64,000 nt of DNA from an uncultured Alphaproteobacteria bacterium (GCA_944393215.1 CALXZL010000002.1:141226-205225), one strand, 5' to 3'. Shown: positions 1-9,174, counted from the stretch's first letter. Notes: a model not told the origin generated them from the sequence alone. Translations and numbers: made by a program.

Positions 1-66
1 GGATAAAATCCGGATCATAAACATCAAGGCATCTGGCTAAAAATTTTTCAGATACAGTATCCAACA
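1..66 (-). CDS. Partial CDS (N-terminus only; the gene continues past the left window edge); hypothetical protein
   Basis: The reverse complement of 1..66 reads ATG TTG GAT ACT GTA TCT GAA AAA TTT TTA GCC... (MLDTVSEKFLARCLDVYDPDF...) and stays open to the window edge. It lies downstream of the DUF262 genes on the same strand. Confidence 0.3.
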
Positions 67-214
67 TTTTGATAATACCACATTTTTATTTAAAAAAAAT
101 AAATTCTTTATAAGATTATGACTCAAAAAAATCATTTTTTAAATGGATATTCTATAGTAGCCTAATGAGAACACAAACAAATACTCAAGCATTTTAAGGA
201 TGTCTCTTTTTTTT

Positions 215-2464
215 TCACAATTGAATCAATCCTCGATTATGAAGAAATTTGCGCAAGAGTTCCACTCTGTTTTTATAATCCATTTTTTTAGCATGATCGT
301 AAAAACCATCCACGACAAAAGGTTCATTATCTTTATCATACAAAACGAAGGCATCATTTTTACAAACAAGATAACAATCTTTATAAATCAATCGCTGTCC
401 ATAATCATTCCGATCAAGATGATCCGAATCAACAATTTTCAAATAAGGTAAAAAAGTACTATGAGGAAACATGCGTGATCCTTCCAAAACCAGGTACAAA
501 AACGGATTTTCTTCCTGTTTTTCATTACTTAATTTTCCTTGTCCTCCGGAACGAAATTCCGGATATTTAACATAGTAATAACACCACTTATATTGGTTTT
601 CCATCTCGCACCGGTCCATAAAATCCTGCGCAATTTGACCTAAAGAATCATTAGTAAACGGACCTTTTTTGAGAAGTTCTACTAAAATTCTATGTGTATC
701 TTCAAAACCGGTATTGGCACTTTTGTGAAATAATGAATTCCATGCAGAATCATTTTTGGGCGTTCCGATCTGATATCTACCGTTTGCTTCTTTCTGCCCA
801 TAAAAATCAATCGACATCAAAGCACAACTTATTTTATCCAAATCACACTTAAACAAGGAAATAAAATTATCGGCAAGATCCAAATTATCTAAACCAACAA
901 TACTAACCTGCCCCTTCAAACGCGGATGATCCTCCAACTTATATAAATTTTCTTGCAACTCGGGCTTTTCAGACAAAAGTTTTATTTTTGCTTTTTCTTC
1001 CTCAATCTGATGCGTATTAAAACCGTTTTTCGAATTCGGAAGATTATCCAAATTTCCGAACCGAATAATATAATTAACTTGTTTTAAGATAGCAGGAATA
1101 CGGCTTCTGTTGCGTCTTTCTGCCAATTCATCATCCGAATTGGAAATCAAATTATGAACAATACGAATTCGGCGAACAAAATCATCATATGTAATTTTAT
1201 CTTTATGCATCAAATAAAAAACAATAGCATATAAAAGCACCATCCTATTCAACGGAAATTGGCGCACATTTCCATTCGTCGGAGAAAAAGAGAACAAACA
1301 ATCTTCAAAAATATCAATTTTACCGGAAACAACAATTTTTTGACCATTAGTCTCATAGTTTCCCTTATCAGAAGAAATGTTGGTCATAAAAGAATTTAAA
1401 AATTCTTTAGGCGTTTGCTTATTATCCAACTCCCGCCAAACATCAAAACTATTTTCTAAAAAGAGAAGATTTTGTTTTGCAGATGCACAATCTTTAGAAA
1501 AATAGGATGAAATAAGGGTAAAATCATCGGCATCTGCTTTTCTCTGACCATATCTTTTGTAACCGATAATATCACAAATAAAACGAAAATAATTCAAAAA
1601 CAAATCATCAATAAGCCCTTTAAATTTTCCTTGCTCATCAATACAATATTTCCATAAAAGATCAGTCCAGTCTCCATCTATTTTTTTTATAATGTTTTCG
1701 GAAATTCTTTGATTATTTTCTTTATTTGTTTTTTGATCAACTTCCTTCAACTGACGTTCAAACTCGGCTTTAAATTGCTCAAAGTTGGTCAAAGGTTTGC
1801 CACGAGAGTTCATTTTAATGTAAAGATCATCGGTCAATCCCATTTTCTTCATGGGTAAGAAATAAAAGCTTATGTTTTTTAATTTTTCCCATAAACCGAA
1901 AACTTCTGCAAAGCGTTCATGAATAGCTTCCAACATCGTCAACATTGAGCTGATGGTCGGATCACTGTGCCAAGTTTTGTAAAACCAAGGTTGATCAATA
2001 ACGGCAGATTTAATATCTTGGGAAGAATATGGCAGATGAGAAATTAAGTCAGCACAAAAACATTTGGAAGAATAACGCGTTTCATAAGTAAATTTAGATA
2101 AGAAATCTCTTTCCTCGGGCAGCTTGTTTTTTCCGCTTTCAAGAGCATAAGCATTAGCGGCATAACAATACAAAAGGAAAAGCGTTGTCAACCTTTGTTG
2201 TCCGTCAAGAGGAGTCAAAATACCTTCGGCATCTATGTCCCCATAAATAAAATCAAGGCAAATCGAAGATTCTGTTACTGTTACTGCCTTATATAAAGAT
2301 TCTAAAAAATGTTTACGAACATTGGTAACCGTAATATTATCGCGTCCTTGAGCATAATCTCTTTGAATTTGAGGAATAACAATTTTTTGAATTTTGAGCG
2401 GTTGATCATCATCCGAAAAATCAGTATTAAAAATGTCGGGAAAGGAAAGTAATAAAGCAGACAT
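215..2464 (-). CDS. DUF262 (ParB-like/GmrS-like) domain protein, 749 aa. The C-terminal half has no recognisable His-Me (DUF1524) motif.
   Basis: N-terminal motifs IPQIQRDYAQGR and LDGQQRLTTLFLL are the DUF262 hallmarks (I-P-x-x-QR-x-Y-x-W and DGQQR-L-T). It sits in tandem with a second DUF262 gene on the same strand. Confidence 0.7.
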   Translation of the reverse strand: MSALLLSFPDIFNTDFSDDDQPLKIQKIVIPQIQRDYAQGRDNITVTNVRKHFLESLYKAVTVTESSICLDFIYGDIDAEGILTPLDGQQRLTTLFLLYCYAANAYALESGKNKLPEERDFLSKFTYETRYSSKCFCADLISHLPYSSQDIKSAVIDQPWFYKTWHSDPTISSMLTMLEAIHERFAEVFGLWEKLKNISFYFLPMKKMGLTDDLYIKMNSRGKPLTNFEQFKAEFERQLKEVDQKTNKENNQRISENIIKKIDGDWTDLLWKYCIDEQGKFKGLIDDLFLNYFRFICDIIGYKRYGQRKADADDFTLISSYFSKDCASAKQNLLFLENSFDVWRELDNKQTPKEFLNSFMTNISSDKGNYETNGQKIVVSGKIDIFEDCLFSFSPTNGNVRQFPLNRMVLLYAIVFYLMHKDKITYDDFVRRIRIVHNLISNSDDELAERRNRSRIPAILKQVNYIIRFGNLDNLPNSKNGFNTHQIEEEKAKIKLLSEKPELQENLYKLEDHPRLKGQVSIVGLDNLDLADNFISLFKCDLDKISCALMSIDFYGQKEANGRYQIGTPKNDSAWNSLFHKSANTGFEDTHRILVELLKKGPFTNDSLGQIAQDFMDRCEMENQYKWCYYYVKYPEFRSGGQGKLSNEKQEENPFLYLVLEGSRMFPHSTFLPYLKIVDSDHLDRNDYGQRLIYKDCYLVCKNDAFVLYDKDNEPFVVDGFYDHAKKMDYKNRVELLRKFLHNRGLIQL

Positions 2465-2493
2465 CAGTTATTCTCCTGTGTAAGAAAAATCTT

Positions 2494-4338
2494 TTACTTC
2501 AAATAAGGTTTAAGGATTTTGTGCATGGCAACAATATAGGCTTTACGATCTTTTTCACCCCAAAAATGAATTTGAGTATCTTTTGCCGGAGTATAAGATT
2601 TCAAAAACACCATTTGCGTACAAAACGGAATATAATTTCCCTCTCGAATTAATTTAATAACAATATTTCGCTTAACATCAAAAGCCGCATTATTAAGGGC
2701 GGCATTGTCGGCAACATTTAAAAGTGCCATGTTAGCAAGAGAGTGCATATTTTCCATCTTTCCCGGTCCGTTTAAAATATTAACAACCTTCGTTCTGATT
2801 TCCTCAAATTCAACTCCGGATAACTTCGGATTTTCAACAGCTTTTTTCATACGCTCAATCAATTCAACATTTTTAGGCGCGACCGTTTTAATAGAGAGAA
2901 TATGCTCGCTCACCCAAGAATGCCAAGCCTTAATATCGACCAAGCCTTTAGAATGTTGGGCATGAATATGCTCCAAACTCCAAACCACTTTATTTTTTTT
3001 GTTAAATTTAAATTTATCAAACGGAAATCTTTGCGATTGTTCTGCCAATTTGCGAACGGATTCAACATTAAATAACAAAAGCAAGCGTATGATTTTTTTA
3101 CAATCTTCGATTTTTTCATAGCTCAGCTCGGCATAATCTTGAAGAGTGTTAGGATCATTTTGAGTAATACGAATACTTTTTTTAATGGCATCATTTAGCT
3201 TAGATAAAAACTCCTTTTTGGTTTTATCTTTTGCCAATTTAAAAATATCTTGCAAGGATTTCTCTTGAGTATAAATGAGATAACCTATTTTATGATACAG
3301 TTCATGATCTTCATACCAATCTTTAAGCATCCAAAAAGCATTCTGAATTTCCAACCACAGCTTTGCCAAAGAGCAGGTGTGGCTATCAAATTTAAAAAAT
3401 GTAAAATATTTATCTCTTTCGTTAGGTTTCTTTTCGGCAATCAAATCCAAAAGCAATTCAATTTTGGTAGAATAATTGCTGCTGCAAGAATTAGATAAAA
3501 AATACCAAAAAGATTCATTATGCAGCTCTTGCTCAATCATATCCCATTGCAGCGCAATTTCTTGTTTGGTCAAATCGGGCAACGAATTTTTCCGTTCACC
3601 GGAATAAAGCTCATGCGATTTACTCAAAAACATAGCCTTAACCAGCTCGGCAGAGGTAAGCGGAATTTTTCCGATATTCAAGCGAGCGAACAAAGATATG
3701 GGATCCTCATTTTGGTCAACTTCATACCAAATAACCTGAACATAGTTTTCAAAATATGTCTTGAGCGTCTGCGGATCACGATCATATTTTTCATCAGCAA
3801 ACCAACCTTTAATCGCATCATAGGCTCGCTTCATAAAATAAAAATCGATATTTTCAGTATATTTTGTATCATTACTCTGATCAATCTCTTCAAGAAATTC
3901 TTGAGATTTATCTCTGGTTTCATACGCAATGGAAAAAAGCGGATGAGGAGAAAAAGGAAGAACTCTGTTCAAATATTTATAAATCAGGAAAATGGTTGTC
4001 AAACGCTGTTGTCCGTCAACCACTTCTAACAACTTGTCTTCTTTTCTTTTAACGACAATCGGCTGCAAACAATAACTATTTTCACCGTTTTGATAAACGT
4101 CATTAAGCAAGCGAATAACATCATCTTCCCCCCATCGATATCCGCGCTGATAGGAAGGAATAAAAAATTTCCCCTTAATTTCAGCAACTTTTATTGTATC
4201 CAAAACAATATTATGAGTAAACATCTTAACCATCCCAAACCAAGAAATAAGAATTATAATATGGACAAATATCACAAACTTCAAGGGCAAAATTCTAAGC
4301 CGTTTGAAGCGTTGCAAGCAAAGGTTCTTTTTTGGCAC
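2494..4338 (-). CDS. GmrSD-family protein (N-terminal DUF262 plus C-terminal DUF1524 His-Me finger nuclease); putative modification-dependent type IV restriction enzyme. The true start is probably the internal Met near 4233 (MVKMFTHN...).
   Basis: IPSYQRGYRWGEDDV and VVDGQQRLTTIFLI give the DUF262 domain. The C-terminal KVVWSLEHIHAQHS followed by conserved Asn residues (LLNVADNAALNNAAF) gives the DUF1524/HNH-like motif. Confidence 0.75.
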   Translation of the reverse strand: MPKKNLCLQRFKRLRILPLKFVIFVHIIILISWFGMVKMFTHNIVLDTIKVAEIKGKFFIPSYQRGYRWGEDDVIRLLNDVYQNGENSYCLQPIVVKRKEDKLLEVVDGQQRLTTIFLIYKYLNRVLPFSPHPLFSIAYETRDKSQEFLEEIDQSNDTKYTENIDFYFMKRAYDAIKGWFADEKYDRDPQTLKTYFENYVQVIWYEVDQNEDPISLFARLNIGKIPLTSAELVKAMFLSKSHELYSGERKNSLPDLTKQEIALQWDMIEQELHNESFWYFLSNSCSSNYSTKIELLLDLIAEKKPNERDKYFTFFKFDSHTCSLAKLWLEIQNAFWMLKDWYEDHELYHKIGYLIYTQEKSLQDIFKLAKDKTKKEFLSKLNDAIKKSIRITQNDPNTLQDYAELSYEKIEDCKKIIRLLLLFNVESVRKLAEQSQRFPFDKFKFNKKNKVVWSLEHIHAQHSKGLVDIKAWHSWVSEHILSIKTVAPKNVELIERMKKAVENPKLSGVEFEEIRTKVVNILNGPGKMENMHSLANMALLNVADNAALNNAAFDVKRNIVIKLIREGNYIPFCTQMVFLKSYTPAKDTQIHFWGEKDRKAYIVAMHKILKPYLK

Positions 4339-5182
4339 ATAAATCCAAAACCGTTTGCCCGTACCGGTTTTTTAACTTAACATCCGCTCCAAATTTTATC
4401 ATCTGGCGGATAATTTTGGCGGCGGCATCCAGATCCGGCTTCTGGAACAATATTTTTCCAAAGCCGGAATTGCTTCCGACAGGAAAATCTTTGGCATAAG
4501 TCTGACAAAAATACATCAAGGCGGTATTTCCGATATAGTCCTGACGATTTATATCTAGCCCATGTTGAATAAAAAGCCGGAAACAATCATCAATATAATC
4601 CTGATTCCAATCACCGGAACAACTAAGCATTTTCGGATTAAGAATAAAAGCCACAAAAAGAGGATAAACATCCGAAGCCGTCATCACACAGCTTTTAACA
4701 TAATCCGGTTTTGCAGAAAAGCGACAAATCATTTCGACGGCTGTTATGCCGTTATTATCGGGAAGATTTGGATTCGCACCATATTTTAAACACACGGGAA
4801 TAATGTCATAATTAAACCGATTATAAGCAGCATAATGCAATATATTGTGCCCGTAATTATCCTTTGCCAGAATATCACTGCCGTTGCTCAACAAAGTTTG
4901 CAACATTTGTTCAAAAGCATCCGGTGTTGCCGGAGAACGTCCGAGAGCAATCAAAGCCGTTTCCCCGTCTCTGCCTTGTTTCCGGACATCCGCACCATGA
5001 TCAATCAAAAAACGCACCACGGCAGGATCTTTATTAAAACGGCAAGCAGAAATCAAAGACGTTGAACCGTCGGAACCAATCTCATTAACATCTACCCCTT
5101 CCGATAACAATTCAATCAAATCCTTTGTGCCTTTTTTCATAGAGCAACAACGTATAAACGTAACGATTTTTGGTTCCGACAT
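4295..5182 (-). CDS. Ankyrin-repeat protein, 295 aa, with at least 4 ANK repeats
   Basis: Repeated G-(A/S)-D/N-V/P-N...DG.T.L..A motifs: GVDVNEIGSDGSTSLISAC, HGADVRKQGRDGETALIAL, YGANPNLPDNNGITAVEMI, FGADVKLKNRYGQTVLDLC. It is on the same strand as the DUF262 genes and 62 bp upstream of them. Confidence 0.8.
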   Translation of the reverse strand: MSEPKIVTFIRCCSMKKGTKDLIELLSEGVDVNEIGSDGSTSLISACRFNKDPAVVRFLIDHGADVRKQGRDGETALIALGRSPATPDAFEQMLQTLLSNGSDILAKDNYGHNILHYAAYNRFNYDIIPVCLKYGANPNLPDNNGITAVEMICRFSAKPDYVKSCVMTASDVYPLFVAFILNPKMLSCSGDWNQDYIDDCFRLFIQHGLDINRQDYIGNTALMYFCQTYAKDFPVGSNSGFGKILFQKPDLDAAAKIIRQMIKFGADVKLKNRYGQTVLDLCAKKEPLLATLQTA

Positions 5183-5197
5183 AATTCCGCCTCCTTA

Positions 5198-5329
5198 TTT
5201 CATCACTGGTTCATAAAGAGCCGGACCGAGTTCTTTTTGCATTACTTTTATGGCATCAAGAGCATCTCTCATGGTGCGATAAGGTGTTGGTAAAATTGTA
5301 CCGTTTATTTTCACATACCAGAACATGTT
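5198..5329 (-). CDS. Small hypothetical protein of about 43 aa (MFWYVKINGTILPTPYRTMRDALDAIKVMQKELGPALYEPVMK)
   Basis: A GGAGG Shine-Dalgarno sits 8 nt upstream of the internal ATG. The ORF ends 13 bp before the ankyrin gene start. The longer 73-aa ORF in the track lacks an RBS. Confidence 0.3.
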
Positions 5330-5555
5330 TATATTCCTCCAAAAGTTAAACAAAAAAAGCAGACATACAAAGAACGACAACGACAAGAGAACTGATTTTT
5401 TTTGCAACAACGTCATTAAGTTGAATAGCGGAATCGACTCTTTCTAATATCGTTTTTGTGATAATATAATATTCACACATTTTTTATATTGTCAAGGATT
5501 ATTTTTTTTAAAAATTTTGTAGTAAAAATCGTTATATTCAATAGAAATAAACGTT

Positions 5556-5590
5556 GACTTATTTCCAAAGTAAATTATATTAAACATATT
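5556..5590 (+). promoter_or_regulatory. Putative sigma70-type promoter (TTGACT, 16-nt spacer, TATATT) followed by an AAGGAG RBS for the 5606 operon
   Basis: ttgacttatttccaaagtaaattatatt is read directly from the sequence 20-50 nt upstream of ATG 5606. The region diverges from the ankyrin/DUF262 operon. Confidence 0.35.
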
Positions 5591-5605
5591 AACAAAGGAG
5601 AAAAG

Positions 5606-6628
5606 ATGAACAAAATTAGAGAAAACTGGTGCAATTTCATCCTCAATGAAGGTATTATTCCGGCAAACTTAACCCGTAAATTAAAAGATTATTCCAATAC
5701 TCAAAACACCTTTTGTGTTTTGCTGGCAGACCTTCTGAAAAATCAAGAAAACGCCGATCTGAACAAATACTCTCTCCTCCCGGAAAAAGAAATTATCAAA
5801 AAATCTTTTAAAACCGATACCGAATTAATGAATTGGCTCAAATCTGTGAAGGAACTGCTGTCTGTCATCCAAACTTATGCCGACAAAGAAGCCCCCTTCA
5901 CAGAAATTGTTGATGAAGCTTGCCGAAGCTTTATCAAAGTTTGTAACTTGGTTTCAGATGATGTCAAACAACGCTATCTTGACACATCAGATAACAAATA
6001 TCTTTACTCCCCGAAGGAAGGAACAGATATCAAGCAAGAATTCAAAATCTATCTCAACGCCCAAAATTACAGCCCCAACACCATAAACAGCTATACCAGC
6101 GCCATCAATCAAATAAGCACTCTGCCAAACATTGAATATGATTTATGGGAGATAGCCGATTCTGATGAAATGACGCGATTAATTAATCTTTTAAACGCCA
6201 ATCCCAACAATTTATATGATTCGTTTAAGGAAAAAGATTCTCTGAGCCGAAACATATTTTCCAATTCTCTCAAAAGATATGCCGAATTTTTAAAAGCCAA
6301 AAAATTGAATCGTCCTTATAAAACAGAAAAAAAGCCGGAGAAAAAAATCGGAGAATATGTCCAAAACGAATTTTGCTACATTTTACAAAGCAACAAAATC
6401 TCTGAATATGAAATTCAACGCCTGATGGATATGAATTACTGCAAACAAATTTTCAAAACCAGAGGACAACAATATCCGATATTGGCAACGGAAGAACGCG
6501 CCCGAGACCGATACTATAAACAACCGCTCAAAATCAGAAACAAAATTTACTATATTTCTTCTCAATGGTATGATGACCAACTACCCTACTTAAAGACATG
6601 GCTCAAAGATCATGGTATCGTCATATAA
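5606..6628 (+). CDS. Hypothetical protein, 340 aa, with no recognisable domain. First gene of a two-gene operon with the UvrD-like helicase fusion.
   Basis: A strong RBS (AAGGAG) precedes the start. The stop codon TAA 6626-6628 lies inside the RBS of the downstream gene (ATG 6639), indicating translational coupling. Composition is Lys/Asn-rich with no P-loop. Confidence 0.6.
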   Translation: MNKIRENWCNFILNEGIIPANLTRKLKDYSNTQNTFCVLLADLLKNQENADLNKYSLLPEKEIIKKSFKTDTELMNWLKSVKELLSVIQTYADKEAPFTEIVDEACRSFIKVCNLVSDDVKQRYLDTSDNKYLYSPKEGTDIKQEFKIYLNAQNYSPNTINSYTSAINQISTLPNIEYDLWEIADSDEMTRLINLLNANPNNLYDSFKEKDSLSRNIFSNSLKRYAEFLKAKKLNRPYKTEKKPEKKIGEYVQNEFCYILQSNKISEYEIQRLMDMNYCKQIFKTRGQQYPILATEERARDRYYKQPLKIRNKIYYISSQWYDDQLPYLKTWLKDHGIVI

Positions 6629-6638
6629 GGATAATAAT

Positions 6639-9068
6639 ATGGTAGAATATTCACGTGAACAACTTTGGAAATTAATCAAAGACTTTGTCAAAGACTCTTG
6701 TTGGAAATATTACGGTTCCGTAACCGATTTAAAACAACATATATTTTACAAATCAACAAGCTTATTTGGCTCATATAACAAATTTAAGGATGATACAACC
6801 ACGTGGCTATGCTTTACCGGACATGGACAAGAAATTAAAAACGGTATCTATATCAGCATTTATATAAACAGACATCGTAACGGGAACCAATTTATTTTAG
6901 ATAACATCGAACTGTGTTATGCCTCCTCGGAAAAAATACAATCTGATCTTTGCTGGAATAAAGATAATCTCCCCAAAACCAAATCAACCAATTTTCCGCA
7001 ATCACATTGTGCGGCAACATACACAAAAAAAGAAATTGAGAGTGATATATGCAAGGAAAAATTTTTAAATAAACTTGACTTCATGATCAAAGAATATAAA
7101 GAAATTTTCACACCCAAAGAAGCAGATACAATTTACAAACCCGGAGATATCAAAATTGATAAAATTGCGTCGAATAAATGCATGACTTGGGTAGAAGGCA
7201 AACTGGGTAAAGAATTGACGGCACAACAAAAAAAAGTTGTTGGCTTAGATTATGATAAAGAAAAAATAAATGCCGCATTGGTAATTGCCAGTGCCGGATG
7301 CGGCAAAAGCACAACTTTACTTGGACACACCTTACACTTAATTGCCAAAGAAAAAATCAAACACTCCGACGATATATTGCTCGTTGTTTTCAATAAAAAA
7401 AATCGACAAGAACTACAAGAAAAAGTAAACGGCTACGGCTTTGAACATCTCGGAGCTGCAATACACACCTTTCATAGCCTTGGATTAAGTATAATTCAAA
7501 CCCAAAATCCGGAGATAAATTCCATAGATCCGGGAGATTCTGAAAATCCATTTAACAAAGTTCTCTCTCAATATACCGACAGCAACACCAAAAAAGGCGG
7601 AGATGACTGGATAAAAAACCTCTGGCGTTTCGGTACGGATATTAATGCCCCTAAAAGATCTGAAGACATTTATCAAAATGAGCTTTCCGATGATAAACTG
7701 AGAGAAAAAATTTGTCTTTTGGAAAACGCCGGATATCCTATCGGATACAAGAATCAAGAAGAAGACATTACCAAACTCCGATTACAAAATTTTTGCACTT
7801 TATACGGGATAGAGCCCACCATACAACTCCACCCCTATCCATGTTTTAAGATTCAGAATAAAATAAAAATATATTGGTCAATAAAACCGATAAATTTAAA
7901 AGAAAATGATATTTTCATCAAAGAATTCACACCAAACACAATGACCGAGCTTCGAGAGAAATTAGAGGCAAAAAATATGAGCTTGAACCCCATATCGGAA
8001 AATACGCTCAAAAGTGCCATAACAACAAGCATACTCCGTGCCAGAGGTGATATTTTCAAAAGAACGGCACAGTTTTTCATAACTGTTTTCAAAATAAAAT
8101 ATCCGAACGGGGATCAAACAAAATTAGAAGATATCAGAAAAGAACTATTGCAGAAATATACCGATACATTGCAACAAAACCATATTAATGCATTTTTTGA
8201 TCTGCTAATTCCCATATATACCGATTATCAAAATGAGTTGAGAGATAATTGCCAAATAGATTTTAATGATATGCTTAATTTAGCCATAAAATATATAAAA
8301 GAAGGAACCGTCACCAGAAAATATAAATATATTTTGGTCGATGAATTTCAAGATGTTGCAAAAGACAATTTTGAGCTGTTGCAAGCCCTGCAAGAAAAGA
8401 CCGGAGCCAAACTGATGTGCGTGGGAGATGACTGGCAGTCCATATATGCATGGAGAGGCAGTGATTTAGAATATTTTGAGAATTTTAAGAAATATTTTCC
8501 GAACTCAAAAAAACTATTCATTACCGAAACCTTCAGAAACGGAGAACGCCTTGTTAAAACCGCAGCCGAATTTGTCAGACAAGATAAAGAATTAAACGAC
8601 AAACAACCAAGTTCCAATCAACCGGAAACCTTGTTGATTCCGTTTTATTATAATTCTCGTAACATAAAAAAACAGTGGGAAAAACTAAAAGAAGACATTA
8701 ACACAAAATATCCGCAGAAGGAAATTGCATTTTTAGGCAGATACCACGCAGATAATAATATATCGGGCACTCAAATACCTTCCGAACATTTTATAACAAT
8801 GCACAAATCGAAAGGGCTGGAAAAAGATGTGATTGTTATTCTCAATTTAAAAAATACACCTCCCTACGGTTTTCCGAGTTCCGTCAAAGGAGATATTGTT
8901 TTAGAGACCTTATATGAAAACAGAGAAGAAAAAGCCCAAGCCGAAGAAAGAAGACTATTTTATGTGGCATTAACCAGAGCAAGAAATGCATGTTATTTAT
9001 GGATTCCGGAAAATAACACCTCCGAATTTGTACAAGAAATAATGGAAATTTACAAAAAAACAAATTAA
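6639..9068 (+). CDS. UvrD/REP-type SF1 helicase fused to an unknown N-terminal domain of about 210 aa. The ORF track gives 6612..9068; the start at 6639 has the RBS.
   Basis: Walker A ALVIASAGCGKSTTLL, motif II YILVDEFQDV, motif III MCVGDDWQSIYAWRGSD, and the C-terminal MHKSKGLEKDVIVIL and YVALTRARNACYLW are canonical UvrD-family motifs. The N-terminal region (MVEYSREQLWK...FTGHGQEIKNG...) matches nothing I recognise, but a D...ExK pattern (KDD...QEIK) is compatible with a PD-(D/E)xK or NERD-like nuclease fold. Confidence 0.8.
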   Translation: MVEYSREQLWKLIKDFVKDSCWKYYGSVTDLKQHIFYKSTSLFGSYNKFKDDTTTWLCFTGHGQEIKNGIYISIYINRHRNGNQFILDNIELCYASSEKIQSDLCWNKDNLPKTKSTNFPQSHCAATYTKKEIESDICKEKFLNKLDFMIKEYKEIFTPKEADTIYKPGDIKIDKIASNKCMTWVEGKLGKELTAQQKKVVGLDYDKEKINAALVIASAGCGKSTTLLGHTLHLIAKEKIKHSDDILLVVFNKKNRQELQEKVNGYGFEHLGAAIHTFHSLGLSIIQTQNPEINSIDPGDSENPFNKVLSQYTDSNTKKGGDDWIKNLWRFGTDINAPKRSEDIYQNELSDDKLREKICLLENAGYPIGYKNQEEDITKLRLQNFCTLYGIEPTIQLHPYPCFKIQNKIKIYWSIKPINLKENDIFIKEFTPNTMTELREKLEAKNMSLNPISENTLKSAITTSILRARGDIFKRTAQFFITVFKIKYPNGDQTKLEDIRKELLQKYTDTLQQNHINAFFDLLIPIYTDYQNELRDNCQIDFNDMLNLAIKYIKEGTVTRKYKYILVDEFQDVAKDNFELLQALQEKTGAKLMCVGDDWQSIYAWRGSDLEYFENFKKYFPNSKKLFITETFRNGERLVKTAAEFVRQDKELNDKQPSSNQPETLLIPFYYNSRNIKKQWEKLKEDINTKYPQKEIAFLGRYHADNNISGTQIPSEHFITMHKSKGLEKDVIVILNLKNTPPYGFPSSVKGDIVLETLYENREEKAQAEERRLFYVALTRARNACYLWIPENNTSEFVQEIMEIYKKTN

Positions 9069-9140: not shown

Positions 9141-9174
9141 AAAAATCCCTTCCGCTTTGGAAAGGGATTTTTTA
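9141..9174. terminator. Bidirectional rho-independent terminator between the helicase operon and the tRNA
   Basis: The hairpin tcccttcc-gctt-tggaaaggga is flanked by an A-run on one side and a T-run on the other. Confidence 0.6.

Follow-up and report, generated by a model that had tools for sequence, protein, structure and literature searches.

We analysed a 64,000-nucleotide stretch of DNA from an uncultured alphaproteobacterium (GCA_944393215.1, CALXZL010000002.1:141226-205225; hereafter the window, with positions counted from its first nucleotide), which carries a two-gene operon encoding a 340-residue protein (gene 1) and a UvrD-like helicase (gene 2). The roughly 210-residue N-terminal extension of the helicase, which the original prediction for this operon had regarded as novel and could not place, is, judged by profile comparison and predicted fold, a divergent homologue of the base-flipping methylcytosine reader domain of McrB and not a nuclease. 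It is fused to a superfamily 1 (SF1) motor that falls in the helicase IV clade. We somewhat favour the interpretation that the two genes form a rare type IV-like module for restriction or defence, directed at modified cytosine and built on a new combination of reader and motor.

The helicase N terminus is related to the McrB reader domain

Compared as a single sequence with the sequences of the Protein Data Bank (PDB), the N terminus of the gene 2 protein matched the N-terminal, 5-methylcytosine (5mC)-binding domain of EcoKMcrB (E=2e-5), and a profile of the N domains of six orthologues matched the same domain at E=3e-12 over McrB residues 7-154. Pfam's own ADAM/DUF3578 model gave no match to this region. 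When an AlphaFold2 (AF2) model of residues 1-212 (predicted local distance difference test score, pLDDT, 77) was compared with the PDB in Foldseek, the top 20 matches were all McrB-N chains (prob 1.00, TM-score 0.64-0.71), and the first match after them stood at E~0.1. In McrB-N, Tyr41 acts as a finger, Trp49 and Tyr64 form the pocket walls, and Asp84 lies in the pocket, with Leu68 touching the 5-methyl group and Tyr117 stacking on the flipped base (PMC3424535). Three of these residues have counterparts that are invariant in all seven orthologue clusters of gene 2 (Tyr41 in Y46, Trp49 in W56, Tyr64 in Y71), and Asp84 is represented by E98, likewise invariant in the gene 2 orthologues. Because the match to McrB-N extends over sequence and predicted fold and takes in several of the finger and pocket residues, we take this region to be a probable reader, and not the PD-(D/E)xK or NERD-like nuclease that had been suspected from a D...ExK pattern.

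An SF1 motor of the helicase IV clade with a probably degenerate insert

As stated in the original prediction, gene 2 has all SF1 motifs; they are intact in the translation (GCGKST, DEFQD, GDDWQSIYAWRG, TFRNG, HKSKGLE, and YVALTRAR), and the protein matched the Pfam models UvrD-helicase (E=7e-39) and UvrD_C (E=2.5e-12). The element GDDWQSIYAWRG has the GDxxQxIYxxRG pattern of SF1A motif III, and YVALTRAR supplies the VALTRA-type arginine finger of motif VI. The best NCBIfam match was DNA helicase IV (PRK11054), at 235 bits against a cut-off of 543 bits and with good alignment only over the C-terminal half; identity to the Vibrio helicase IV was 32% by BLASTP. A Pfam scan of gene 2 did not match Helicase_IV_N (PF12462), in whose place the McrB-N-like domain stands. 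These comparisons put the motor in the helicase IV (HelD) clade, yet not as a helicase IV equivalog.

Walker A and motif II of gene 2 are separated by ~345 residues, ~125 of which are absent from classical helicase IV and form an insert within the N-terminal RecA-like half. At the insert position, the nearest helicases outside the fusion family (P0013-P0016, P0018, P0019, and P0022-P0024) have the pattern E...YKPDF...IYIEHFG. For their inserts, Pfam Phage_endo_I gave E-values of 3e-4 to 1e-3, and the PDB sequences gave T7 endonuclease I (2pfj) at E=0.007, with the positions of the catalytic Glu, Asp, and Glu matched. The gene 2 family has kept the flanking helices, and ~45 alignment columns containing PDF...IEH are gone. 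On weak E-values and a clear motif pattern, we assign the gene 2 insert with moderate confidence as a vestigial T7-endonuclease-I-like PD-(D/E)xK domain with a deleted catalytic core. The relatives themselves, all encoded outside the window, are helicase IV-like proteins of 900-1020 residues with an apparently intact insert, which Pfam leaves unannotated, and most of them also have a C-terminal topoisomerase-type zinc ribbon; by their domain content, they look like uncharacterised nuclease-helicases.

Gene 1 encodes a predicted DNA-binding adaptor

As originally noted, gene 1 belongs to no recognised family: searches of Pfam, PHROG, and PADLOC gave no match. Its close relatives, which are either full length or confined to the N-module, are 47-100% identical to it. 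The all-helical N-terminal domain contains the strongly conserved motif W-C-x-F-[IV]-L-N-E-G-I-[IM]-P as well as S-F-I-K-x-C-x-L-V, and it is kept in ~30 representative clusters of 230-250-residue proteins. The central domain resembles the N-terminal core-binding (SAM-like) domain of tyrosine recombinases. Alignment with XerA stops at profile position 109 of 263, Pfam revealed no Phage_integrase match, and no R-H-R-Y catalytic domain follows the core-binding-like part. We therefore rejected gene 1 as a recombinase, since it is without the catalytic domain and ends in an unrelated domain of 95 residues.

This C-terminal domain is unannotated and mobile. It follows the pattern K-I-G...L-E-S-G...Y-[SC]-K..F...Y-P-x-L...R-Y-Y..P..I.G..Y-Y-x-x-S-Q-W...W-L and is absent from many members of the gene 1 family (the short form, ~235 residues). 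A gene 1 profile run against 1.84 billion representatives yielded 465 matches at E<=1e-3; among the matches listed, ~30 were N-module proteins and most others had the C-domain only, and most of the 465 are attributable to the C-domain. No Pfam, NCBIfam, or PDB entry matched the C-domain of gene 1. A C-domain profile retrieved nothing credible from the PDB sequences (best match NucT, E=0.03), and the only NCBIfam match among ten C-domain proteins was a sub-threshold one to phosphate butyryltransferase (E=0.0035, 16.5 versus 410.5 bits). The same domain forms the C terminus of proteins carrying TIR_2, T5orf172/GIY-YIG, GmrSD, HEPN_Swt1, HSDR_N_2, or BisI/DUF6998 domains, the fusion to a BisI-type domain being P0162. 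Across the proteins P0062-P0197, it is met both in such fusions and as a stand-alone domain. Its conserved residues (R-Y-Y, C-S-Q-W, and two Trp) make up no obvious catalytic set, and we infer that it serves in binding or coupling, perhaps as a new type of domain associated with effectors or sensing DNA. Nor did we find an acidic catalytic motif in gene 1 as a whole, which we predict to be a non-catalytic DNA-binding adaptor.

The pair is linked in several genomic contexts

Full-length orthologues of the helicase make up only seven 90%-identity clusters among 5.8 billion proteins. Every orthologue with upstream sequence is preceded, at a distance of 1-23 nucleotides, by a gene 1 homologue, and this arrangement recurs in four flanking contexts (the window and L009-L012; L001-L004; L013-L015, L017, and L019; L025), bearing out the expectation that the two genes would be kept together in other genomes. 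The two have diverged to a similar extent, gene 1 showing 47-53% identity and the helicase about 59-62%. In the related assemblies L009-L012 (up to 387 kb), conservation of either protein reaches 99-100%. In tblastn searches of plasmids and phages, gene 1 and the N domain had no match, and the helicase matched only generic UvrD cores in phages. Scans of viral contigs recovered neither family, and a scan of metagenome contigs recovered only three loci. With no relatives found in these searches of phages, plasmids, and viral contigs, a phage or plasmid origin was rejected.

Not all metagenome strains have the helicase in one complete piece: it is split into parts of 665 and 103 residues in L003 (2086-4465) and of 207 and 626 residues on a single 12.7-kb contig (P0211 and P0218), or shortened to 661 residues (P0219); these forms could reflect pseudogenisation or assembly error. 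At L005-L008 (8001-11719 in L005) and L021 (7292-9624), a short gene 1 with no helicase lies beside a gene for an HNH-like protein of 133-140 residues and is followed by a paralogue with a core-binding-like domain (266-297 residues). L005 has, after the paralogue, an additional 599-residue protein that matches no family. Short gene 1, HNH-like gene, and paralogue may constitute an alternative cassette at the same position.

A divergent operon brings restriction-like genes next to the pair

The GC content is 0.32-0.39 over positions 1-9000 and 0.40-0.45 in the adjoining rpoD/dnaG region, and the low-GC stretch contains modification-dependent restriction genes, in agreement with the defence-island setting originally proposed. 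Two tandem GmrSD-family genes had been described as lying directly beside the operon. The genes are present, but an ankyrin-repeat gene and a 43-residue open reading frame (ORF), sm43, intervene. The two GmrSD-family genes matched Pfam GmrSD_N (E=6e-32 and 4e-22) and, taken together, the PADLOC models HEC-06, Orf5, and SspE, and both carry a DGQQR motif. The 614-residue protein ends in a His-Me-finger-like motif (EHIHAQ...NMALLN...N) with a weak Pfam GmrSD_C match (E=0.007); no nuclease domain was recognised in the 749-residue protein. The 614-residue gene also raises a question of start. Its GTG start, at 4338, lies within the ankyrin gene; in assemblies, the gene is called from a start ~35 codons further on.

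Gene 1 is accompanied in most of the loci examined, even where its identity is down to 33-36%, by such a divergent minus-strand operon, which comprises a small nuclease gene (DUF6998, or HNH-like of 133-140 residues), the 43-residue ORF, an ankyrin gene, and a variable last gene. Exceptions are L005-L008, which retain only the nuclease gene, and L022, which has an AAA+ gene instead. Where the window has its GmrSD genes, sister loci have either a DUF2779/Cas4-like or an AAA+ gene. The ankyrin gene is present in L013-L015, L017, L018, L020, L021, L027, and L028. The sm43 product is 77-100% identical in L001-L004, L009-L015, L017, L018, L020, and L025 and 38-50% identical in L021/L027, among the most distant loci; where it is 77-100% identical, identity falls to 45% for the neighbouring ankyrin protein and to about 50% for gene 1.

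The DUF6998 protein of the sister loci matched PADLOC mREase_II (E=3.5e-41), Eco15I (8q5m; E=1.2e-20), and NhoI (E=4e-11), and it is, on this homology, a BisI-family 5mC-dependent endonuclease. Its gene is present in nearly all sister loci. The ATATTGTCAA / TGTGATAATATAAT block of the divergent promoter region precedes the BisI-family gene in both L001 and L018 and is kept in the window upstream of the 43-residue ORF, the simplest reading being that the BisI gene was probably lost in the window's lineage.

Further observations concern the surroundings. A double-AAA+ ATPase of 672-692 residues is encoded upstream of gene 1 homologues in L018 (3966-5984, minus strand) and L022 (4643-6721, minus strand); the two copies are 40% identical to each other and IetA-like in PADLOC (E=2e-34), the loci being otherwise different, and a GmrSD_N gene lies nearby in L022. 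The stretch between tRNA-Met and rpoD (9252-9861 in the window, 11464-13270 in L009-L012) varies among closely related strains: only some of them have small ORFs there, between one and three, a DUF1847 gene among them. This suggests a second variable spot beside the tRNA gene.

Operon boundaries and regulatory elements

Both ORFs of the operon are present and intact, and the stop codon of gene 1 is embedded in the ribosome-binding site (RBS) of gene 2, as had been described (Table 1); the stoichiometric complex proposed from this coupling was deduced from gene spacing only. All gene 2 orthologues open with M-x-E-(Y/I)-S-R-E-x-L-W, and we set the start of gene 2 at ATG 6639 because the orthologue N termini and the gene calls of the source assemblies agree on it. 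The promoter attributed to the pair can be located, but promoter-like sites are no more frequent in this AT-rich stretch than in shuffles (12 found versus 15.4 expected). Better support comes from the intergenic regions of orthologous loci, with which both the TTGACT element and the divergent TTGACA-18-TATTAT block can be aligned. The inverted repeat in the divergent promoter region may be an operator. Downstream, the operon ends at a tRNA gene, as originally stated, which was the sole match in an Rfam scan; the hairpin that separates the two could serve as a bidirectional terminator for the operon and the tRNA gene.

Table 1. Features of the operon and its surroundings in the window
Feature	Position	Strand	Remarks
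Two tandem GmrSD-family (DUF262) type IV restriction-like genes	215-2464, 2494-4338	-	749 and 614 residues
Ankyrin-repeat protein	4295..5182	-	295 residues; Pfam Ank families
sm43	5195..5326	-	43-residue ORF, first gene of divergent operon; MFWYVKINGTILPTPYRTMRDALDAIKVMQKELGPALYEPVMK; no family match
Inverted repeat TGTGA-N11-TCACA	5457-5477		overlaps -10 region of minus-strand promoter candidate
Candidate divergent promoter of sm43-ankyrin-GmrSD operon	5466..5495	-	TTGACA-18-TATTAT; stronger than 5554..5581 site
Candidate sigma-70-like promoter of gene 1 and helicase	5554..5581	+	TTGACT-16-TATATT; 10/12 match
Gene 1	5606..6628	+	340-residue ORF; RBS AAGGAG at 5595-5600
Gene 1 N-terminal all-helical domain	5606..5980	+	residues 1-125; AF2, pLDDT 58-92
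Gene 1 central domain	6023..6310	+	residues ~140-235; resembles tyrosine-recombinase core-binding (SAM-like) domain
Gene 1 C-terminal domain	6338..6616	+	residues ~245-337; AF2 pLDDT 37-61
Gene 2 ORF	6612..9068	+	818 residues at full extent
Gene junction	6626..6641	+	gene 1 stop TAA (6626-6628) is first half of TAAGGA; 7 nucleotides; ATG 6639
Gene 2, conserved start	6639..9068	+	809 residues; McrB-N-like reader and helicase IV-clade SF1 helicase
Putative McrB-N (ADAM/DUF3578-like) modified-cytosine reader domain	6639..7118	+	residues 1-160; PDB-sequence profile, AF2, Foldseek
Low-confidence linker	7119-7253	+	residues ~161-205; follows reader domain
SF1A (UvrD-like) helicase core	7254..9065	+	residues 206-809; Pfam UvrD-helicase, AAA_19, UvrD_C
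Walker A (GCGKST)	7296-7313	+	
Insert in N-terminal RecA-like half	7671..8048	+	residues ~345-470; alignment with nearest non-fusion helicases
Motif II (DEFQD)	8340-8354	+	
Hairpin, candidate terminator	9147..9165		GC-rich, flanked by A-run and T-run; between helicase gene and tRNA-Met
tRNA-Met(CAT)	9175..9251	-	

Relation to known systems

The operon resembles McrBC (EcoKMcrBC) in having a McrB-N-type reader N-terminal to a nucleoside triphosphate-driven motor, together with a partner protein from the same operon. It differs in its motor, which is an SF1 UvrD/helicase IV-type ATPase with neither an AAA+ McrB domain nor an NxxD GTPase; in its partner, since gene 1 is not McrC, contains neither DUF2357 nor a PD-DxK nuclease, and lies upstream, whereas the McrBC partner lies downstream; in the absence of a nuclease from the operon; and, as aligned, at the pocket positions equivalent to Leu68 and Tyr117. 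Judged by domain content, one of three defining features of McrBC, the reader, appears to be present, and the AAA+ GTPase and the McrC partner are absent. In a census of McrBC systems, the McrB GTPase is the only protein described with an ADAM domain (PMC11090510). Text searches of the literature, within incomplete coverage, returned no report of a McrB-N/UvrD-type fusion and nothing relevant on DUF6998, L68F/L68Y McrB mutants, or helicase IV in defence.

From helicase IV (HelD, PRK11054) and the P0013-P0024 proteins, gene 2 is distinguished by McrB-N in place of Helicase_IV_N, and from the latter also by the missing zinc ribbon and the reduction of the nuclease insert to a remnant. The BisI family (Eco15I and NhoI; DUF6998; mREase_II) is connected with the pair as a divergent neighbour in sister loci and through a 5mC-type DNA target that we predict to be common to both, whereas its known members are stand-alone enzymes and homology to BisI is absent from both operon proteins. 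SauUSI-type type IV enzymes unite a PLD nuclease, an SF2 helicase, and a modified-cytosine reader in one chain. They likewise couple such a reader to a helicase-type motor, but as a single polypeptide with its own nuclease, an SF2 motor, and an unrelated reader fold.

Gabija also consists of two genes and includes a UvrD-like helicase, and gene 2 matched the GajB models with E-values down to 5e-42. However, gene 1 is not an OLD/Toprim ATPase-nuclease (it had no PADLOC match), and GajB has no reader domain. The PADLOC matches of gene 2 are confined to the RTasHel and GajB models and limited to the generic helicase core, for which reason we rejected membership of Gabija or DRT; in the case of Gabija, GajA is also missing. 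The original view that the pair is not Gabija, Nhi, Hachiman, or DISARM holds, and PADLOC-DB v2.0 contains no named system with both proteins, gene 1 giving no match and the helicase only generic ones.

Proposed mechanism and alternative explanations

The favoured reading, a type IV-like module directed at modified cytosine, draws on the domain identities, the intact motor motifs, the gene linkage, and the neighbourhood, in which a restriction theme recurs: a BisI-family gene beside the pair in sister loci, two GmrSD genes in the window, and fusions of the gene 1 C-domain to effectors. Under this reading, gene 1 would be co-translated with the helicase and would probably bind it. The reader would dock the resulting complex on invading DNA bearing 5mC, 5-hydroxymethylcytosine, or N4-methylcytosine-type marks, flipping a modified cytosine out of the duplex into its aromatic pocket. 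ATP-driven translocation or unwinding would then begin at the docked site, with the UvrD-like motor taking the place of the AAA+ GTPase motor of McrB, and the DNA would be exposed or handed to a separately encoded nuclease, which would be of BisI type in the sister genomes and possibly the GmrSD proteins in the window.

Several observations weigh against this scheme. No nuclease is detectable in the gene 1 or the gene 2 protein, and a tblastn search of the whole window for the BisI-family gene returned nothing at E<=0.01; for these two reasons, the pair as found here seems to be nuclease-less on its own, and the two GmrSD genes are the only nearby candidates. In the reader, McrB Leu68 is replaced by tyrosine (Y75 in gene 2; phenylalanine in one orthologue), and Tyr117 aligns with histidine or arginine in a gapped, uncertain stretch. 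The ligand may therefore not be 5mC, even if the fold and the base-flipping apparatus seem to have been kept. The AF2 model of gene 1 is of low confidence overall (pLDDT 65). Gene 1 also occurs apart from the helicase, in its long form in L018 and L020 and in its short form in L005-L008, L021, L022, and L027, so that the pair is not an obligate unit; with a conserved neighbourhood that extends into the divergent operon, the original picture of a self-contained two-gene system does not stand. Finally, all examples come from one lineage of uncultured gut Alphaproteobacteria, so that common descent could account for some of the conservation seen in the neighbourhood. In a variant that we consider less likely than not, the pair would be a plug-in reader-motor unit without its own nuclease, which either blocks the replication of modified DNA by unwinding it or feeds whichever nuclease the divergent operon of a given genome provides (BisI-type, HNH, Cas4-like, or GmrSD), and the 95-residue C-domain of gene 1 would be an undescribed effector-coupling or sensing domain common to bacterial defence proteins of the TIR, GIY-YIG, HEPN, GmrSD, and BisI types.

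It is doubtful that the pair is instead a decaying or orphaned remnant of an ancestral locus in which a BisI-type nuclease, sm43, and the ankyrin gene stood divergent from gene 1 and the helicase, left functionless or tolerated once the nuclease was lost. Such decay would fit the promoter block that still stands upstream of sm43 where the BisI gene is gone, the split or truncated helicases of L003 and of the 207- and 626-residue pieces, and a helicase that is dispensable in L018 and L020. Both ORFs in the window are nevertheless full length with every catalytic motif intact, their near-identity in L009-L012 is not what decay would lead one to expect, and the GmrSD nucleases in the same divergent operon could substitute for the lost enzyme. 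We consider it unlikely that the main role of gene 1 is to regulate transcription of the two back-to-back operons by binding TGTGA-N11-TCACA, with the helicase acting alone and not having gene 1 as a structural partner. A DNA-binding core-binding-like domain, an inverted repeat conserved in the shared promoter region, and the divergent orientation of gene 1 relative to the sm43/ankyrin/nuclease operon in most loci, with or without the helicase, would all suit a regulator. The tight junction with the helicase in every locus speaks against it, as do the fusions of the C-domain to effector enzymes elsewhere, a better fit to a sensor or adaptor than to a repressor, and the fact that repressors are not typically built from core-binding domains of recombinases.

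Recombination and the recycling of RNA polymerase are processes in which members of the helicase IV clade act. Gene 2 could be a housekeeping or epigenetic HelD-like helicase that works on methylated host DNA in repair, recombination, or replication/transcription conflicts, with gene 1 as a DNA-binding cofactor. The clade of its motor and the lack of a nuclease in the pair agree with such a role, which we nonetheless judge unlikely: a housekeeping function is hard to reconcile with a family of so few clusters, patchy presence even in close relatives, a low-GC island setting, consistent linkage with modification-dependent nucleases, and a replaced helicase IV N-terminal domain (PF12462). Scarcely credible, in our view, is the earlier notion of a nuclease-helicase with a PD-(D/E)xK or NERD-like fold in its N-terminal 210 residues. 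The D...ExK-like spacing is visible by eye, and related helicases do have a PD-(D/E)xK domain, which however is an internal insert and in the gene 2 family is without its PDF...IEH core; both the sequence and the predicted fold of the N terminus itself make it a homologue of McrB-N, a non-catalytic domain.

Implications

The family is a tiny one, with members only in uncultured gut Alphaproteobacteria, and it is nuclease-less in the window. If it functions as proposed, the methylcytosine reader of McrB would not be tied to the McrB GTPase and could be moved onto an SF1 helicase, which would represent a new way of building a modification-dependent restriction system. BisI-family enzymes would gain a multi-gene context that includes a motor, an adaptor, a conserved 43-residue protein, and an ankyrin protein. 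The C-domain of gene 1 travels with several classes of defence effector, and its structure and binding could be studied as a well-defined target.

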